Below are positions 2,816 to 56,497 of a stretch of DNA of 64,000 nt, piece after piece (position 1 is the stretch's first letter; every line of letters starts with the position of its first letter). This DNA comes from Thermoplasmata archaeon (GTDB taxonomy: Archaea > Thermoplasmatota > E2 > JACPAO01 > JAHFTW01): the NCBI GenBank assembly GCA_023269235.1, contig JAHFTW010000001.1:43548-107547 (forward strand), read 5' to 3'. The translations under genes were made by a program, and so were the position numbers. Below the pieces are notes generated by a model. That model worked only from the letters and a program-made list of their open reading frames with translations. It did not search any database and was not told the origin of the DNA.

Positions 2816-4174
2816 ATGGAACGGGGCCACGTCCGGGCCGTCCTGGGGCGCCACGCCCTGCCCGGGCCGGGCCACGCCTGGTCGGATGCCGACCCGACCC
2901 GTCTTCTCGATGCCTGGGTGCTCGACGACCCGCTCCAGGAGCTCCAGCGCGCCTCAGGCGAGTCCCGGCTGCGCGAGCTGGGCCACGACTACGCGGTGCT
3001 GTGGGCGCGCACGTTTCGCACCCTTGTGCGCCACCTGCGCGGCCGCCCCGAACGCGCCCTGAGCCTCTTCGTCGCCGAGGTGTACCCCTTCCTGCGCGGC
3101 GACCGGCTCGCCGCCCGCCTCGAGGAGGCCCGCCCTGGCGCGGCGCGCGTCAGCCTTGCGGGAGGCCTTCCGCCCGCCTACCTCGCCGGCCTCGTCGAGG
3201 GCTTCGTCAACCTCTCCGGCGCCGAGGCGCAGGCCACCGCGCTTCCGGCCCCCCTGGATGCCCCCGCCACGCTTGTCCAGGTCGCGTGGCGCCTGCGTCC
3301 CGCCGAGCGCCTGTCGCGCTTCGTCCAGCAGGCGGCGCTGCTGCGCTTGCCGCTCCTCTCCTGCGCACTGCTGGGCGCCCTGCTCGGCGTTGCTCTCGCC
3401 TTCCACCTCGCGGGCCCGCTGGAGCCGTGGCGCGTCGCCGCCGTCCTGGCGGGCGCCGTCGCCGTCCAGGTGGGCTCCAATGCGTGGCATGACCTCCACG
3501 CGCGCCATCCGGCGGGCATCCTCGGCGCGCCGCGCCTCGGCCGCCCGGCCCTCTGGCGCCTCGTCTGGGCTGGCTACCTCCCCGCCGCCATCCTCGGCGT
3601 GGCGCTCGCCTGGAACAACGTGGTCGTGCTCCTCTTCGCCTTCGCGGGCGTCGCGGTGAGCGTCCTCTTCGCCCGCTTCCGCGGCGCCGGCTGGGGCCCG
3701 GTCCTCGCGGGGCTCACCTACGGCCCGCTCCTCGCGGAGGGCGCGCTCCACGCGGTCCTCCCCGGCGCGCTGGACCACGTCGGCCATCTCGCCGCCGTCC
3801 TGTGGACCCTCCCCGTGGGCGCGCTCGCCGCCGCCATCCTCTACCTCGACGACCTCGCCGACCGGCCCCTCGACCAGGCGGGCGGCCACCGCACGCTTCT
3901 CGTCCGCCTGCCCCAGGCCGGCCACTGGCTTGGCCTCGCCTCGCTGCTCCTGCCCGCGACCGGCCTCCTCGCCGCCCTCGTGGCCCTCGCCGCGCCGGGC
4001 CCGCTCGCCCTCCTCGTCGCGAGCCTCGTGCTGGTCCTCGCCGCCGTCGCCATCCTCCTTCGGGTGCGCGGCCACCTCGACGACCCGCACGCCCTCTCCC
4101 CCGACCGCGTCGCCGCCGTCGCCCTCCACCTCGCCGCCTCCGCCGTCACGATCCTCGCCCTGGTGCATCCATGA
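2816..4174 (+). CDS. UbiA-superfamily prenyltransferase-like membrane protein with ~180-aa soluble N-terminal domain; first Asp-rich motif degenerate
   Basis: 7-8 TM helices. Second UbiA motif intact (YLDDLADRPLDQAGGHRTLLVRL, MenA-like). First motif position reads N-A-W-H-D-L-H-A-R instead of NDxxDxxxD. Stop overlaps the next start (ATGA). Confidence 0.6.
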   Translation: MERGHVRAVLGRHALPGPGHAWSDADPTRLLDAWVLDDPLQELQRASGESRLRELGHDYAVLWARTFRTLVRHLRGRPERALSLFVAEVYPFLRGDRLAARLEEARPGAARVSLAGGLPPAYLAGLVEGFVNLSGAEAQATALPAPLDAPATLVQVAWRLRPAERLSRFVQQAALLRLPLLSCALLGALLGVALAFHLAGPLEPWRVAAVLAGAVAVQVGSNAWHDLHARHPAGILGAPRLGRPALWRLVWAGYLPAAILGVALAWNNVVVLLFAFAGVAVSVLFARFRGAGWGPVLAGLTYGPLLAEGALHAVLPGALDHVGHLAAVLWTLPVGALAAAILYLDDLADRPLDQAGGHRTLLVRLPQAGHWLGLASLLLPATGLLAALVALAAPGPLALLVASLVLVLAAVAILLRVRGHLDDPHALSPDRVAAVALHLAASAVTILALVHP

Positions 4175-20665: not shown

Positions 20666-21058
20666 TTAGGCCTTGCCGTCGACGAGGACCTTGAAGCCGG
20701 CGTAGCCGAACCGCTTGCCGTCAATCGGCATGGTGGACGGGTCGAGGGTGCTCATCCGGGGGTCGGCCATGACTTTCTTATTGATGCGGTCCCGGTCGGC
20801 CTTGGACTTGAATACGATGAAGGAGAACAGCACCGTCTCGCCGCGTTTGGCGAGGGCCATCTTCGGGAACTGCGAGGGCGCCGTTTTCATGCCGCCCTGG
20901 CCATCCGGGAATACGGAGAACAGCTCGTCGGCGACGCACTCCTTGTAGTCAAGCGCGCCGTGCTCCATCCAGACCTTGCGGCCCAGGATGGCGAACTTGC
21001 GGTACGCGGCGAGCTTGGCCTTGGGCACGGGAAGGAGGAAGCCATCAACGTAGGCCAT
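20666..21058 (-). CDS. DUF1428-family protein (YbaA-like)
   Basis: MAYVDGFLLPVPK...FGYAGFKVLV pattern typical of DUF1428. Confidence 0.6.
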   Translation of the reverse strand: MAYVDGFLLPVPKAKLAAYRKFAILGRKVWMEHGALDYKECVADELFSVFPDGQGGMKTAPSQFPKMALAKRGETVLFSFIVFKSKADRDRINKKVMADPRMSTLDPSTMPIDGKRFGYAGFKVLVDGKA

Positions 21059-21167
21059 GCCCGTGACATCCAGACGCGCACGATATCACTGCCGGTCGGC
21101 GGGTTGCTTTCACTGGACTCCCCACGCGGTCGACCGTGAATGCGTGGGGGTCGGCTCCACAGGCAGG

Positions 21168-21806
21168 ATGATGTACGGGGCCAGCCTGGAAAACGCCATG
21201 GAGCGCGCCCTGGCCTTCCACCCGTTGCGGGAACACCAGGCCGAGCCCGAGCGCCTGGCCGCGCTCATCCAGGAGGCCAAGGCCGTCCTTCTCGACCGCG
21301 GCATGGCCTCCATGGAAGAGTACGGGGACATGCTCAAGTGGGGGCTTGTGCGGCGTGACGGCAAGATGCGCAGCATGCACGTCTACCACCCCGACTGGTG
21401 CTCCTTTAGCGACACGTTTCGCGGCACCATCCACTACCACGGCGGCGCCATCCGCGGCACGCTCCTTCTTGGCGGCTTCGAGCACTCCATCTACGAGGCC
21501 AAGCCCGACCCCGACGGCGACCGCTTCCATCTCGGGCAGCCGTACAAGCTGACCAAGCACACGCGCCTGCAGGGCGCCGGCACCACGTACGACCTCCCGG
21601 CCATGGTGCCGCACTGGCTCAAGCCGACCTCCCTCACGCTCACCTCCTTCGAGGAGGAGGACAACGGCGAGATGGGCGACCTGGTCAACCCCGCCTCCGA
21701 TGCCATTGACGACCACAAGTGGACGCAGGAGATGGCCGATGCTCTCCTCCCGGTCTTGCTGCGGCTCCTCGACGAGAAGTTGGCCGCGCTGATGGTCCTC
21801 GCCTAG
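21168..21806 (+). CDS. Hypothetical protein
   Basis: ORF with GC3-rich codon usage. First ATG at 21168 (verified in sequence). Confidence 0.4.
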   Translation: MMYGASLENAMERALAFHPLREHQAEPERLAALIQEAKAVLLDRGMASMEEYGDMLKWGLVRRDGKMRSMHVYHPDWCSFSDTFRGTIHYHGGAIRGTLLLGGFEHSIYEAKPDPDGDRFHLGQPYKLTKHTRLQGAGTTYDLPAMVPHWLKPTSLTLTSFEEEDNGEMGDLVNPASDAIDDHKWTQEMADALLPVLLRLLDEKLAALMVLA

Positions 21807-21840
21807 CCGACGTGGGACACGACAGAGCGTCCGCTAGCAC

Positions 21841-22157
21841 CCATCTTGGTTCGGCTAGCGAGGCGCGCGGCGAAGAAACGGCGAAGCGTCCTACGACTGC
21901 TCCCTCTTCCTGCTCATCCGCGCTTGCAAGCAAGCGCGGATTCGACCTCGCACCAGGGCCTGCGCTTCGCTAGGCCGCTGTGCATCGGCACCAAGACGGA
22001 AGTCCGGGCTTCGCCCTAGGACTGTTCCATCTTGGTGATCATCCGCCGCGCGGGCGCGGCGAATTCTTCCTCGCTCGGCCGCTTCGCTAGGCTTCGCTTC
22101 GGCACCAAGACGGAACCCAGGCCTTCGGCCTAGGATTGTTCCATCTTGGTGATCATC
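21841..22157. repeat. Tandem direct repeat (~114-117 bp unit, two good copies plus one degenerate) containing pseudo-copies of the aIF-5A 3' end
   Basis: ccatcttggt(gatcatc) at 21841, 22027 and 22141. tcggcaccaagacgga at 21985 and 22099. gcttcgctagg at 21964 and 22081. The copy at 22027-22043 re-encodes ...MITKMEQS* on the minus strand. Confidence 0.7.
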
Positions 22158-22522
22158 TTGCGCTCCATCGCGATGATGTAGCTGACGTCGCCGCCGGCGA
22201 TGAGGCCCTCGGCGAACTCCTCGGGGACGACGATGTCGAAGGTCTCGAACGAGTCCTTGTCCATGATCTGGGCGACGCCGCCGTGGAAGGAGAGGAGCTG
22301 GGCGGCGCGGCGGTCAACCGTCGGGATCCAGACCTTGTCCGTCACGCTGCCGAGGTAGGTGCGCTTGGCGTTGGTGAAGATGCTGCGGGCCTCGATGCGC
22401 AGCTTGGAGGCGCCGTGCTTGCCGGGCTTCGACTTCTCGATGGAGTCGATCTTGCAGGGCTCATCGTCGATGAGCATGAACCGGCCTTCCTTGAGCTCAC
22501 GGGCCTCAAGCTGTTCCTTCAC
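22130..22522 (-). CDS. eif5a: Translation initiation factor 5A (aIF-5A), hypusine-containing
   Basis: Hypusination loop SKPGKHGASK. GTG start. Confidence 0.9.
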   Translation of the reverse strand: MKEQLEARELKEGRFMLIDDEPCKIDSIEKSKPGKHGASKLRIEARSIFTNAKRTYLGSVTDKVWIPTVDRRAAQLLSFHGGVAQIMDKDSFETFDIVVPEEFAEGLIAGGDVSYIIAMERKMITKMEQS

Positions 22523-28881: not shown

Positions 28882-29211
28882 ATGCCACCCCCGGCTCCGA
28901 CGGGCGTGGCCTTCTGCGGCAACTGCAAGAGCCTCGTCTACCCCGTGGGCGGGAAGCTCTCGTGCAAGAAGTGCGGCTGGAGCTCGGACGGACCGGCCGC
29001 CGCCAACGTCGTGCGCACCGCCGCGTCAGGCACCAAGCGCGTCGTGCTGGAGAAGAAGGAGGAGGCGCGCCCCCTCCAGACGACGACCTGCCCGAAGTGC
29101 TCCCACGACCGCGCCTACTTCCACCTCATGCAGACGCGGCGCTCGGACGAACCGCCGACGCAGATCAACGAGTGCGAAGCGTGTCATCACTCGTGGCGCG
29201 ACTACGGATGA
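28882..29211 (+). CDS. tfs: Transcription factor S (TFS) / RNA polymerase subunit M-like
   Basis: N-terminal Zn ribbon CGNC...CKKCGW and C-terminal CPKCSHDRAYFHLMQTRRSDEPPT...CEACHH (TFIIS-type ribbon with acidic hairpin). Start chosen at the ATG after the ggag RBS; the longer ORF has a GTG at 28849. Confidence 0.8.
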   Translation: MPPPAPTGVAFCGNCKSLVYPVGGKLSCKKCGWSSDGPAAANVVRTAASGTKRVVLEKKEEARPLQTTTCPKCSHDRAYFHLMQTRRSDEPPTQINECEACHHSWRDYG

Positions 29212-29284
29212 TGGCGTGGTACGTCGAATGGACCGGGCGGTCGCGGGAGTGCCATCCAGGCCCTCCGCGGAATGACCCGGAGAA

Positions 29285-44684: not shown

Positions 44685-44994
44685 GGGTTCACTGCCGGTC
44701 GGACCGGCATCCGGACAAGCCCACCGGGCCGGTTAATAGTTCCTCCAAGAGTCATCCCGGCAGGCTTGCCCAGTTCAATACCCATTGACAGGTTCATGGC
44801 TGACTTGAAAATGTCCAGGTGAAGCCACGGGGTACCCGATTCGAAACGTACCGCTTCGTCTGTCGCTTTCTCAATCCGCGTCCGACGATTTTTTCTCCTG
44901 GACGGCCGGGTCAGGCCAGCGTCGTTTTCCCTCGGGTCTGCTCTTAAGCTTGTGGGCCAACGGGTATGAACCTCGGAGTCGCGACCTAGGGACC

Positions 44995-47043: not shown

Positions 47044-47103
47044 CGCGGCCCGCCCCGCGCAGTCCTTATCCCCCCGTCCTCCCTCGACACGGACAGTGAG
47101 ACC

Positions 47104-47379
47104 ATGAGTCCAGCCAAACCCGCCAAGAAGACCGCCGCGAAGGCCGCGGCGCCCGCCAAGAAGGCCGCCCCCAAGGCCGCCGCGAAGAAGCCGGTCACGC
47201 ACACCCCACCCAGCAAGAAGGTCGTCGCGAAGGCGCAGCATGACCACCAGGACCCCCGCGTCGGCGCCGACCACGGGCATGCCCAGGCCGGGCACGCGAA
47301 GCACCAGCACGAGGGCATCCCCCCGGCTCCGCGCTTCAACAAGGTCATCAACTGGTTCCGCCGCGGCAGCGGACGATAG
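47104..47379 (+). CDS. Small Lys/Ala/Pro-rich basic protein with His-rich C-terminal tail
   Basis: AKKTAAKAAAPAKKAAPKAAAKKP (histone H1/Hc1-like), then HDHQD..HGHAQAGHAKHQHEG. Possible RBS upstream. A T-rich stem-loop terminator candidate follows. Confidence 0.4.
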   Translation: MSPAKPAKKTAAKAAAPAKKAAPKAAAKKPVTHTPPSKKVVAKAQHDHQDPRVGADHGHAQAGHAKHQHEGIPPAPRFNKVINWFRRGSGR

Positions 47380-47406
47380 GACGCTGGCGTGGCGGCCGAA
47401 GGAATG

Positions 47407-47500
47407 CCTCCGGTTGACGGAGTCGACCGGAGGCTCCGCCGCGGCACGGGCCGCTGAACGTTGCTCACGCTAGCCCTTCTTCTCTTTCTCTCCCCTTTCT
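47407..47500 (+). terminator. Stem-loop plus pyrimidine/oligo-T tract, terminator candidate
   Basis: Inverted repeat cctccgg-N13-ccggagg (47407-47433), a second GC hairpin gcggc..gccgc, then cccttcttctctttctctcccctttct. Confidence 0.3.
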
Positions 47501-47507
47501 AGAGGTC

Positions 47508-47747
47508 TTACGAGCCGACGACGATGACGTCGCGCACGGCGCGGATGGCCGAGAACGGGTAGGTGAGGCGGCCCTGGGCGTCCTTGGGCATGCCCTTCGT
47601 GTTGACCTCTTGGCCGGGCTCGACGTGGATGCCGACCAGGTCGCCGGTCTGGACGTTCGTGCTGATGGCGCGCAGGATGCCGAGGTAGCCTCCCTCGTTG
47701 CTCATCACGGTCTTGCCACGCAGCTCGGACTCGAAGACCTTCGTCAT
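47508..47747 (-). CDS. PRC-barrel domain protein
   Basis: ~80 aa with GKTVMSNEGGYLGILRAISTNVQTGDLVGI, typical of archaeal PRC-barrel proteins. ATG at 47745-47747 verified. Confidence 0.55.
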   Translation of the reverse strand: MTKVFESELRGKTVMSNEGGYLGILRAISTNVQTGDLVGIHVEPGQEVNTKGMPKDAQGRLTYPFSAIRAVRDVIVVGS

Positions 47748-47799
47748 ATCTTCCCTCAAAGGCCACCAGTGGGCGGCCGAAGATAAGGATTCGGAACGG

Positions 47800-48156
47800 C
47801 TACGCGGGGAGGACGCGCGTGTCCGGGTTGCTCGGGCAGGAGTCGGCGCTCTGGAATCCGCCGACGCCGTTGGATTCCGTGTACACCAGGGCCGGCTGTT
47901 CCCCGACAAGGTAGACGTAGTACTCGTTCACGTCGGTCTTGACGATGTAGGAACCCTGCTGGACCTCGCACGGCGGCGATTCCGGCGCTGCCGAGGCCGG
48001 CGGCGTGGACGGCGAAGGGTCGGCTGGGTCGGACGACGACGGGGCGGCCGACGCGCTCGTCTTGCCCGAGGTCGGGGCGGGGCTCGGCTCAGCCGTCTGG
48101 CTCGCGCATCCGGCAAGGAGGAGGCATCCTACGAAGGTCAGGGCAAGCAGGCGCAC
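47800..48156 (-). CDS. Small secreted lipoprotein (Ser/Pro/Ala-rich linker)
   Basis: Lipobox LLLAGCAS. GTG start with ggtgga RBS chosen to avoid a 62-nt overlap with cdc48; the longer ORF reaches 48264. Confidence 0.45.
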   Translation of the reverse strand: MRLLALTFVGCLLLAGCASQTAEPSPAPTSGKTSASAAPSSSDPADPSPSTPPASAAPESPPCEVQQGSYIVKTDVNEYYVYLVGEQPALVYTESNGVGGFQSADSCPSNPDTRVLPA

Positions 48157-55453: not shown

Positions 55454-56497
55454 TCAGCTGAACGTGAAGAGGACCACGAGGTCCTGGAAGTCGGCCGCCG
55501 ACGAGTTGAGGTCGTCCGTGAACTCGTAGAGGAGGATGACCTGGTTCCGGTCGAGCACCATGGTCTGCGTGTAGGTGTTCACGTACGGCTGCATGAACGA
55601 GGCCAGGAGCGCCTGGTTGCCGAAGGCGGGCCGGTTGGGGGCGGCATCGCCTTGCTTCAGGGTCAAGACATGAGGCGTGGACGCGATCGAGGTGTAGGTC
55701 TTATCGAACGAGCAGCTGGCGAGCCTGGCCCGTCCTTCGACGCCGAGGACGGAGCCGGCGGGCACTTGGCCCAAGTTGAGGCTCTGGCCACCGTTCGGGT
55801 TCACGGGAGCGCCGCCAAAAAGGGAAGCGTAGCTGGACCCGCCGTTTTGGGTGTAGCGCGCCGTCACGTCCATTTGCGGCCCGGACGCGCCGCAGGTGAT
55901 CTGGGCACCCACGATGGCCAGGTTCACGTTCCAGGTGCCGCCGGACACCGTGATGCCGCCCGAACCGGCGCCGATGAGGAAGGCCGGCGACTGCGAACGC
56001 AAGGCCTCGACCTGGAAAACGTACTCGCGGTTGGAGTACACGGTCACCTGGGCCTCGCGCCCGGCAGCGGAGTAGCAGCCGGCAACGGGGCCGATGATGC
56101 AGAGCCGGGTCCCCACCGTCCAGGCGGGGCCGCCAATCTGGGCCGAGAAGGTGGAGAGGGGCACCGCGGTCTGGACGCCATCCAGCGTGATGAACAACGT
56201 CGAGCCCGCGACGGGGATGTCGTCCGGCCCGCTTGGCTCCAGGTAGTAGCCTTCGCCCGTGAAGGTGGCCTTTCCGCCGGACTCCACGGGGTCGTGCGGT
56301 TGCGTGCGCAGCACCTGCGTCATGACGACGAAAAGCGCCGCGAGGACCACGACGATGCCGATCAGCAGGATGCCGCCAATGGGCCCTGTGGCTGCGCCCC
56401 GGTCGGTGGCGAAGCGTCGGCGGGGGGCGCGGGGGGCAGCCTCCATGACCCTACTGTGCTGAGGGGGCTGCCTTTCGGGCTTTCGGGAAAGGTTCAT
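55454..56497 (-). CDS. Archaeal type IV pilin-like protein (class III signal peptide), 347 aa
   Basis: DRG|AATGPIGGILLIGIVVVLAALFVV fits the archaeal prepilin [KR][GA]-hydrophobic pattern and Pilin_N. An alternative ATG at 56446 gives a shorter leader. Confidence 0.65.
   Translation of the reverse strand: MNLSRKPERQPPQHSRVMEAAPRAPRRRFATDRGAATGPIGGILLIGIVVVLAALFVVMTQVLRTQPHDPVESGGKATFTGEGYYLEPSGPDDIPVAGSTLFITLDGVQTAVPLSTFSAQIGGPAWTVGTRLCIIGPVAGCYSAAGREAQVTVYSNREYVFQVEALRSQSPAFLIGAGSGGITVSGGTWNVNLAIVGAQITCGASGPQMDVTARYTQNGGSSYASLFGGAPVNPNGGQSLNLGQVPAGSVLGVEGRARLASCSFDKTYTSIASTPHVLTLKQGDAAPNRPAFGNQALLASFMQPYVNTYTQTMVLDRNQVILLYEFTDDLNSSAADFQDLVVLFTFS

Follow-up and report, generated by a model that had tools for sequence, protein, structure and literature searches.

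Why do the last codons of the aIF5A gene, which encodes a core translation factor, reappear in tandem outside that gene? The question arises in a 64,000-nucleotide (nt) stretch of a Thermoplasmata archaeon (contig JAHFTW010000001.1, positions 43,548 to 107,547 of the forward strand; hereafter the window), in which the 323-nt spacer between aIF5A and a convergent gene (21807-22129) holds a repeat that re-encodes the final eight codons. An earlier note on this DNA preferred to see in it the scars of site-specific integration at an attachment (att) site, with amplification of a terminator or 3′-untranslated region (3′-UTR) as its fallback. We show that each repeat unit is a stem-loop module in which the codons form one arm. 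We consider it probable that the repeat is a lineage-specific tandem amplification of this module at the 3′-end of the aIF5A transcript, where we infer that it would serve as a 3′-end element. The gene and the repeat copies are as follows.

22130-22522, minus strand: aIF5A coding sequence (130 aa, GTG start at 22522, C-terminus MITKMEQS followed by TAG)
22091-22172, minus strand: copy A, the real gene end plus ~45 nt downstream
21977-22058, minus strand: copy B, 114 nt from copy A
22016-22042, minus strand: pseudo gene end B (ATGATCACCAAGATGGAACAGTCCTAG), reading MITKMEQS-stop and identical to the real end at 26/27 nt
~21887-21921, minus strand: copy C, degenerate, 125 nt from copy B
21891-21917, minus strand: pseudo gene end C, degenerate (ATGAGCAGGAAGAGGGAGCAGTCGTAG)
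21833-21859, minus strand: fragment D, with a 10-mer at 21841-21850 in the loop of a small GCUAGC/GCUAGC hairpin

The repeat was assessed by direct and inverted repeat finding and by Smith-Waterman alignment against shuffled sequences. Copies A and B are 80% identical over 82 ungapped nt at a spacing of 114 nt, and their gapped score of 102 compares with 16 ± 2.5 for dinucleotide shuffles (0/1000). The 27 nt for MITKMEQS and the stop carry a single synonymous difference between them (CAA/CAG). Pseudo gene end B was recovered with a gene-end profile (nhmmer E 9e-5) and is in frame with aIF5A, 114 nt being 38 codons. The 20-mer TGTTCCATCTTGGTGATCAT has two sites in the 64 kb, in copies A and B only (expected 0.00). 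Over 35 nt, copy C is 80% identical to copy B and 69% to copy A, with scores of 38 for B vs. C (shuffles 17 ± 2.6, 0/1000) and 26 for A vs. C (3/1000 shuffles). Fragment D lies 27 nt past the stop of the convergent gene, and its 10-mer (written CCATCTTGGT, ACCAAGAUGG or ACCAAGATGG) accounts for the start coordinate 21841 of the earlier note. All five occurrences of the related pattern CCRTCTTGGT in the window, two of them inverted, fall within 21841-22150; 0.14 would be expected.

The aIF5A repeat is the longest local direct repeat of the window. It recurs with 0 mismatches over 1100 nt in L024 (ENA) and L025 (Logan), two further assemblies of this organism, so that an assembly artefact is unlikely. 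Tandem Repeats Finder left the array uncalled, because there are only ~2 good copies. The tandem repeat first described from the letters is thus real, its copies scoring far above shuffles and being identical in two further assemblies, but the spacings are 114 and 125 nt and not a unit of 114-117 bp, and the motif quoted for it, ctagg(a/c)(t/c), has only one variable position (t/c).

What is being repeated? That the units re-encode the last codons is correct as far as the copies go, but the inverted codon copy inside each unit had been overlooked. In messenger RNA (mRNA) sense, CACCAAGAUGGAAC (codons T-K-M-E) pairs with an inverted copy, GUUCCGUCUUGGUG, 21-23 nt downstream, and between these outer arms stands a second, apical stem with a GAA triloop; the TAG stop is inside. 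The following elements were delimited.

22103-22151, minus strand: hairpin A, a predicted fold that encloses the stop codon
22065-22102, minus strand: unit A linker, with GCGAAGC mini-hairpin motifs (CCGAAGCGAAGCCUAGCGAAGCGG) and GAGCGAGGA
22041-22064, minus strand: hairpin 2B (AUUCGCCGCGC-loop-GCGCGGCGGAU), whose 3′ arm enters the AUG of pseudo gene end B
21989-22037, minus strand: hairpin B, with outer arms identical to those of hairpin A
21944-21988, minus strand: unit B linker, with the motif hairpin GGCCU-AGCGAAGCGC-AGGCC
21916-21941, minus strand: hairpin 2C (AUCCGCGCUUGC / GCAAGCGCGGAU), a perfect 12-bp stem up to the AUG of pseudo gene end C

The arms of hairpin A (5′ arm CACCAAGAUGGAAC, 22138-22151; 3′ arm GUUCCGUCUUGGUG, 22103-22116) are 14 nt long and 93% Watson-Crick paired, or 14/14 when G-U pairs are counted, and its apical stem reads CCUAGGCC-GAA-GGCCUGGG, with TAG within. 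The fold (-34.0 kcal/mol, z -5.6) was equaled by 0/200 shuffles, and on this strand of the 64 kb only two other stems pair over 13 or more positions without a mismatch. Hairpin B, with its apical stem rebuilt as GUCC-UA-GGGC-GAA-GCCC-GGAC, reaches -34.7 kcal/mol in 66 nt (z -6.0, 0/200 shuffles). Hairpin 2B folds at -17.3 kcal/mol (z -2.6), and hairpin 2C, with 100% paired arms, at -21 kcal/mol (z -3.1); the latter is one of eight perfect stems of at least 10 bp in the 64 kb. The downstream arm of copy C has decayed (21862-21890), and the weak hairpin that it forms folds no better than shuffles (z -0.5). The 369-nt region as a whole folds with a z of -6.75. A sliding 66-nt scan of minimum free energy was uninformative (mean -23.6 kcal/mol, hundreds of segments below -33) because the window has 70% G+C.

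The linkers and second hairpins are repeated as well. The 13-mer GCCTAGCGAAGCG at 21963-21975 has an exact second copy at 22080-22092. Hairpin 2B has its counterpart inside the gene, in codons ...IAMER(R/K)M (compared with the relatives' TCGCC-ATGGAAC-GGCGGATGATCAC); comparison with relatives identifies the counterpart of the second hairpins as a small hairpin in codons ...IAMERR-M (UCGCC-AUGGAAC-GGCGG-AUG), so that copy B is homologous to the gene over ~14 codons.

The differences between copies A and B are distributed unevenly. None of the 38 arm positions differs, while 6/21 apical positions do (29%), and all six, read directly, keep pairing: one C-G pair is swapped to G-C beside the loop, and the other four changes build a 4-bp helix in a shifted register. 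This is the pattern expected of a constrained structure, or of one rebuilt by template switching, and not of recombination scars.

Could integration nevertheless have produced the repeat? Integrases leave att-site duplications at the 3′-ends of tRNA or protein genes, and an element carrying the aIF5A 3′-end that entered in one or more rounds of site-specific recombination and subsequently disappeared would leave direct repeats re-encoding a gene 3′-end, as are present here. Gene content just downstream of aIF5A also varies in relatives, with a DUF2798 gene in either orientation or, in L023, a 150-aa gene. However, hairpins are all that lies between the copies, at spacings of 114 and 125 nt, precise excision would leave one copy only, and the neighborhood has no integrase or other mobile-element gene and the window no tRNA gene. 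The core was without match in viral contigs, plasmids and phages (0), collections from which archaeal elements of this uncultured clade may be missing, and the variable small genes of the relatives are not bounded by gene-end repeats. Unlike att duplications, the copies here are accompanied by no inserted DNA, integrase or attP-bearing element, and the unit is a hairpin with an inverted codon copy. Structure explains both this inverted copy and the compensatory differences; recombination explains neither. With gene order shared among relatives besides, we regard att scars as very improbable, which does away with the misleading notion that this core translation gene is a hot spot of integration or bears the scar of a mobile element.

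The DUF2798 gene, for a small membrane protein, lies directly behind aIF5A in L026 (451-693, plus strand), L028 (2763-2987, minus strand) and L036 (3024-3248, minus strand) and also in L001, L008 and L021; it is absent from the window, and the 150-aa gene stands there in L023. Beyond the DUF2798 gene no inverted gene-end copies, possible mediators of inversion, were found. The site behind aIF5A is a local hot spot of indels and inversions without recognizable mobile-element features.

If the module is structural, relatives should be informative. The closest relatives of the organism are uncultured Thermoplasmatota known from metagenome-assembled genomes. In most relatives aIF5A has 127-128 aa and finishes ...MITKM-stop, so that the C-terminus in the window is 3 aa longer. 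The extension is shared by a subclade made up of the window, P0001/L020 (95% identity), P0002/L021 and L022 (92%) and P0011/L023 (84%). At fourfold-degenerate sites the divergence of L020 and L022 from the window is 20-24%, and both retain the stop-enclosing hairpin via compensatory changes in the extension codons and their partners: the outer-stem pairs are AUGGAAC/GUUCCGU in the window, AUGCAG/CUGCAU in L020 and AUGGAGC/GCUCCGU in L022. In this outer stem, pairing holds in 96.7% of cells over the shared columns; sliding the partner lowers it to 29-42%. Both sides are altered in three pairs. The apical stems of L020 and L022 are wholly different from that of the window, fully paired and GAA-capped.

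In L020 a single clean hairpin is accompanied by a degenerate copy like copy C of the window; copy number therefore varies, and copy B is an extra duplication or conversion of the window lineage. It had been proposed that repeats present and invariant in all relatives, with no association to mobile elements, would favor a structural role. The structure is indeed largely kept in relatives without mobile elements, but the copy number is not invariant. In L021 (1500-1560), which has the same aIF5A protein as L022, the stop hairpin is weaker, and behind it comes a C/T-rich tract that contains the short tandem repeat CCCCTTCCTTCT; this 3′-end is of another kind than the hairpin cluster.

A recoding role was also weighed, in which the hairpin promotes TAG read-through and the protein gains 38 residues, with another MITKMEQS before the second TAG. 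The 114-nt spacing puts copy B exactly in the reading frame of the gene with no intervening stop, and both TAG codons sit inside stable hairpins. An in-frame spacing is, however, a one-in-three chance, the 125-nt spacing of copy C breaks the frame, those relatives that have this hairpin stop at TAA (L020, L021) or TGA (L022) and have unrelated downstream frames, and no extended aIF5A is found in relatives. Recoding is thus extremely improbable.

Hairpins behind aIF5A are not confined to this subclade. Throughout the high-GC Thermoplasmatota clade, GAA- or GCA-capped hairpins gather just 3′ of aIF5A, often with the loop GAGCGAAGCGAG. Stop-adjacent hairpins from eight loci, a small sample picked partly by eye, have a common C-GAA-G cap (GUA in one) on stems that are unrelated yet complementary; 9/11 pairs are altered on both sides, and 24 compensatory cells compare with 9.8 ± 2.4 in shuffles (0/500). 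A covariance model built from the hairpin (R1) was searched over 210 kb, and 15/19 hits with E<0.05 fell within 300 nt downstream of aIF5A, 6 of these 15 outside the training set. Such hairpins are ~40-fold denser behind aIF5A than in flanking DNA. Within the window R1 scores only hairpins A (25.1 bits) and B (20.8 bits), with the next best at 14.1, and two of the four GAA-capped stems of at least 4 bp are at the aIF5A repeat. The loci fetched later (L029, L035, L036 and L037) have such hairpins too. L029 carries one though its next gene, aIF2-alpha, is co-directional, which indicates that the element follows aIF5A and not convergent junctions. Through its G-U pairs the sense strand folds better than the other in 4/5 cases.

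The loop is kept as well. Downstream of aIF5A, 8-mers of the motif GAGCGAAGCGAG are ~30-fold enriched over the flanks: CGAAGCGA occurs in 7/22 loci (0.21 expected from flanks) and AGCGAGGA in four (0.04 expected). The 12-nt motif caps unrelated stems in L001 (2952-2980), L006 (4389-4417), L016 (2441-2469) and L027 (3420-3448), is also seen in L029 and L036 (~2990-3015 in both), and reads as tandem G-A pairs around a GC-GAA-GC mini-hairpin. Clear hairpins are wanting, or C/T-rich tracts stand in their place, in L003, L013-L015, L017 and L021, and the cap orientation is reversed in L002, L010, L028 and L035.

These observations bear on whether the hairpins behind aIF5A could be an undescribed gene-specific cis-regulatory RNA, GNA-capped, often with the loop GAGCGAAGCGAG, and with the stop sequestered in the subclade of the window, a reading that we find distinctly unlikely. 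If it were true, a factor, possibly aIF5A, would couple translation termination or mRNA decay to factor abundance, and the tandem copies would be selected extra binding sites, which would explain the identical arms and the conserved 10-mer ACCAAGAUGG. In its specific form, that hairpins, loop and sequestered stop bind a factor that sets decay or translation termination, post-transcriptional control of aIF5A is highly doubtful. The factor might be aIF5A itself, with extra copies as more putative binding sites; an RNA-binding and ribonucleolytic activity of aIF5A has been reported for Sulfolobus (PMC9599864). The element lies behind aIF5A both with a convergent next gene (window) and with a co-directional one (L029), is unique within the window, keeps its loop sequence while the stems covary, has identical arms in A and B and its 10-mer kept in D, and found no relevant match in Rfam 15, either for the window region or for seven related loci. 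In contrast, the GAGCGAAGCGAG motif is absent or altered in hairpins A and B (tips GCCGAAGGC and GGCGAAGCC), and both the six loci with missing hairpins or C/T-rich tracts and the four with an opposite cap fit poorly with a dedicated binding site.

Has the module been amplified elsewhere? L005 (4391-4609) contains three units of a post-stop hairpin module with a ~79-nt period, scoring 82 and 30 vs. ~15 in shuffles (0/1000); its outer copies are 87% identical over 61 nt. The hairpin of L005 begins after the stop, so that no codons are detectably copied, and the gene end within its repeat is not significant (p ~0.1). L012 (4657-4723) has a perfect 28-nt doublet, GGCAAGCTCGCGCAAGCGAAGCGCGCGG, 39 nt apart, of a GCGAAGC-capped hairpin; this doublet lies ~270 nt downstream of aIF5A. 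The amplifications in L005 and L012 are independent of that in the window. The fallback of the earlier note, a terminator or 3′-UTR amplification, thereby gains structural support from the stem-loop unit, the compensatory pairing and the independent amplification elsewhere.

By eye, degenerate gene-end copies seemed to be present in L001, L008, L028 and L010 as well, but the nhmmer gene-end profile picked up those of L008 and L028 only at E 2.8-4.7 and no other. With the 8-mer CCAAGATG enriched (four loci vs. 0.23 expected), such copies are no more than suggestive. L008 (4459-4513) has a weak pseudo gene end, GGATGGTCACCGGCAAGGTGTCA, with an unusual AAGG as in its own gene end, ACCAAGGTT, and the 16-mer CAAGGTGTCA... 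is present twice, a hint that the gene end and its downstream copy evolve in concert, with a weak nhmmer E of 2.8.

Recurrent amplification can also be read without function. GC-rich quasi-palindromes would drive replication slippage and template switching, and the stems would be perfected and duplicated as a neutral by-product. Template switching at quasi-palindromes can make "compensatory" changes without selection. The periods differ (114-125 nt in the window, 79 nt in L005, 39 nt in L012), copies decay, as the fold of copy C shows, and the tips GCGAAGC and CCGAAGG are extraordinarily stable as DNA mini-hairpins and much weaker as RNA (PMC13037366, PMC3201870). We nevertheless hold a neutral origin to be unlikely. 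The stop-adjacent hairpin persists across lineages with 20-40% fourfold-site difference, stem sequences turn over while the GAA cap and the GAGCGAAGCGAG loop stay fixed, the hairpins are concentrated ~40-fold behind aIF5A relative to flanking DNA, and the G-U pairs favor a structure of sense-strand RNA.

The preferred explanation, amplification of a stem-loop module at the transcript 3′-end, would then run as follows. The first post-gene hairpin of the subclade would have grown back into the coding region, its last codons (T-K-M-E...) serving as the 5′ arm and an inverted copy 21-23 nt downstream as the 3′ arm, with the stop codon inside. The resulting module (stop hairpin, GCGAAGC-motif linker and second hairpin) would have been duplicated in tandem, at least twice: copy C may be old, and copy B younger or homogenized with A. 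On this account eight codons appear re-encoded because they are part of the duplicated stem, and with a terminal hairpin that has the last codons as an arm, any hairpin duplication re-encodes codons outside the gene. As an RNA 3′-end element, the cluster would define or protect the 3′-end of the highly expressed aIF5A mRNA, and might insulate it from the neighboring gene via hairpin-associated termination and/or a block to 3′-exonucleases. A role of the hairpins in termination, stability or insulation is what we infer from their structure and position.

Several points weigh against this explanation. (i) Archaeal termination depends on U-tracts and aCPSF1, not on hairpins (PMC8716108, PMC7515710), and the sense strand of aIF5A has no U-tract after the hairpins; a terminator-like signal is called once only, beyond hairpin 2B on the other strand, with a T-rich tail on the plus strand. 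(ii) That A and B are strictly alike in their 5′ and 3′ arms, and that D retains the 10-mer exactly, is more than base pairing needs and would require gene conversion or a sequence-specific constraint or reader. (iii) The caps match DNA mini-hairpin sequences whose RNA forms are weaker, which is compatible with a slippage or template-switch origin. (iv) The choice by eye brings an ascertainment bias into the covariation of the eight loci. (v) Only 7 of 42 gene ends in the window have a stem of at least 12 pairs vs. a 12% background, and a measure of uninterrupted stems behind aIF5A in relatives was not significant (p = 0.18). As gene ends are generally without long stems, the element looks gene-specific and not like a generic terminator.

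Known systems offer partial parallels. In Haloferax volcanii, an archaeon of high G+C content, 503 mapped transcript 3′-ends have a hairpin upstream, and a gene commonly has several such ends; a hairpin put to the test in vivo stopped 59% of transcripts although it lacked a U-tract (PMC7237163). The locus resembles this in having GC-rich hairpins at or before RNA 3′-ends, a GC-rich archaeal host and several possible ends per gene. It differs in that the ends were mapped in H. volcanii and are putative here, that the hairpin encloses the stop and has a coding arm, and that a genome-wide class there contrasts with a tandem-duplicated element apparently at one gene across the clade. Bacterial hairpin-cluster terminators (PMC8355165), and tandem terminators behind highly expressed genes, likewise place adjacent stable stem-loops after the stop, between convergent genes, but here the host is archaeal (U-tract plus aCPSF1, PMC8716108), there is no U-tail and the copies are homologous by duplication. 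Transcript 3′-end formation in high-GC, U-tract-poor archaea is poorly understood, and a covarying, clade-wide hairpin set at one highly expressed gene is a candidate for hairpin-dependent 3′-ends or gene-specific control.

Repetitive extragenic palindromes and bacterial interspersed mosaic elements (REP/BIME) and miniature inverted-repeat transposable elements (MITEs) are dispersed extragenic GC-rich palindromes, sometimes in tandem, with roles in mRNA stability or termination. The repeat resembles them as a tandem cluster of GC-rich imperfect palindromes in intergenic DNA. It differs in being found only behind aIF5A (64-kb window and 37 related loci), in having no target-site duplications and in having one coding arm. 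REP/BIME and MITE were rejected because the 20-mer and the 10-mer are at this locus only in the 64 kb and R1 scores only A and B; a MITE was rejected further because the inverted arms are the gene's codons and their complement, with no flanking target duplication seen.

The caps are exactly those of the GCGNAGC/CCGAAGG mini-hairpins (GGCGAAGCC and GCCGAAGGC here; GCGAAGC and GCGCAGC in relatives), for which the documented extraordinary stability is that of DNA and the RNA versions are much weaker (PMC13037366, PMC3201870). A DNA-level element, in which these mini-hairpins act in single-stranded DNA, e.g., as pause or priming signals, would account for that identity (PMC13037366) and for the flipping of cap orientation between lineages. 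Against it, the G-U pairs of the stems are mismatches in DNA, there is neither an AT-rich unwinding region nor a replication gene among the neighbors checked, and the position is bound to the end of one particular gene; we give such a role very little credence. Four other candidates were rejected: a box C/D or H/ACA small RNA (no C/D boxes, no ACA pocket), a bulge-helix-bulge splice site (bulges not on opposite strands), origin recognition boxes (an AT-rich region is lacking, as is an Orc1 gene among the neighbors checked) and a translated 8-codon mini-ORF (AUG buried in hairpin 2, no ribosome-binding site).

The gene itself merits a comment. The source genome annotates aIF5A as 115 aa from an internal ATG (P0007), which accounts for the lack of an exact match when the 130-aa product was looked up. 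The 15 residues upstream of the annotated start, MKEQLEARELKEGRF (22478-22522, minus strand, from GTG 22522), are kept in all close homologues, so that the annotated start is probably too short. The Pfam domain IF5A-like_N was found on aIF5A homologues.

The surroundings are conserved. The gene order permease, aIF5A, convergent hypothetical, DUF1428 and OMP decarboxylase is common to relatives, and the neighborhood in the window holds genes for an amino-acid permease, an NAD kinase fusion, KsgA, DUF1428, OMP decarboxylase, a hexapeptide transferase and an MFS transporter. The gene across the spacer is

21057-21806, plus strand: convergent neighbor, a conserved hypothetical with its 3′-end toward the repeat

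It has no Pfam domain, is annotated as 211 aa in source assemblies and stands next to aIF5A in a like arrangement in L004-L007, L010, L016, L020 and L027.

Other stems and repeats were seen in the window. A perfect 13-bp hairpin with a GGA loop (47406-47434) lies between the convergent genes 47044-47379 (plus strand) and 47508-47927 (minus strand), a 16-pair stem (29180-29218) lies between convergent genes, and stems of 20-21 pairs occur near gene starts at 44711-44773 and 56423-56484. The Ala/Lys/Pro-rich small open reading frame at 47044-47379 (plus strand) contains a 33-nt in-frame tandem repeat (47119-47184) in two copies that are 88% identical.

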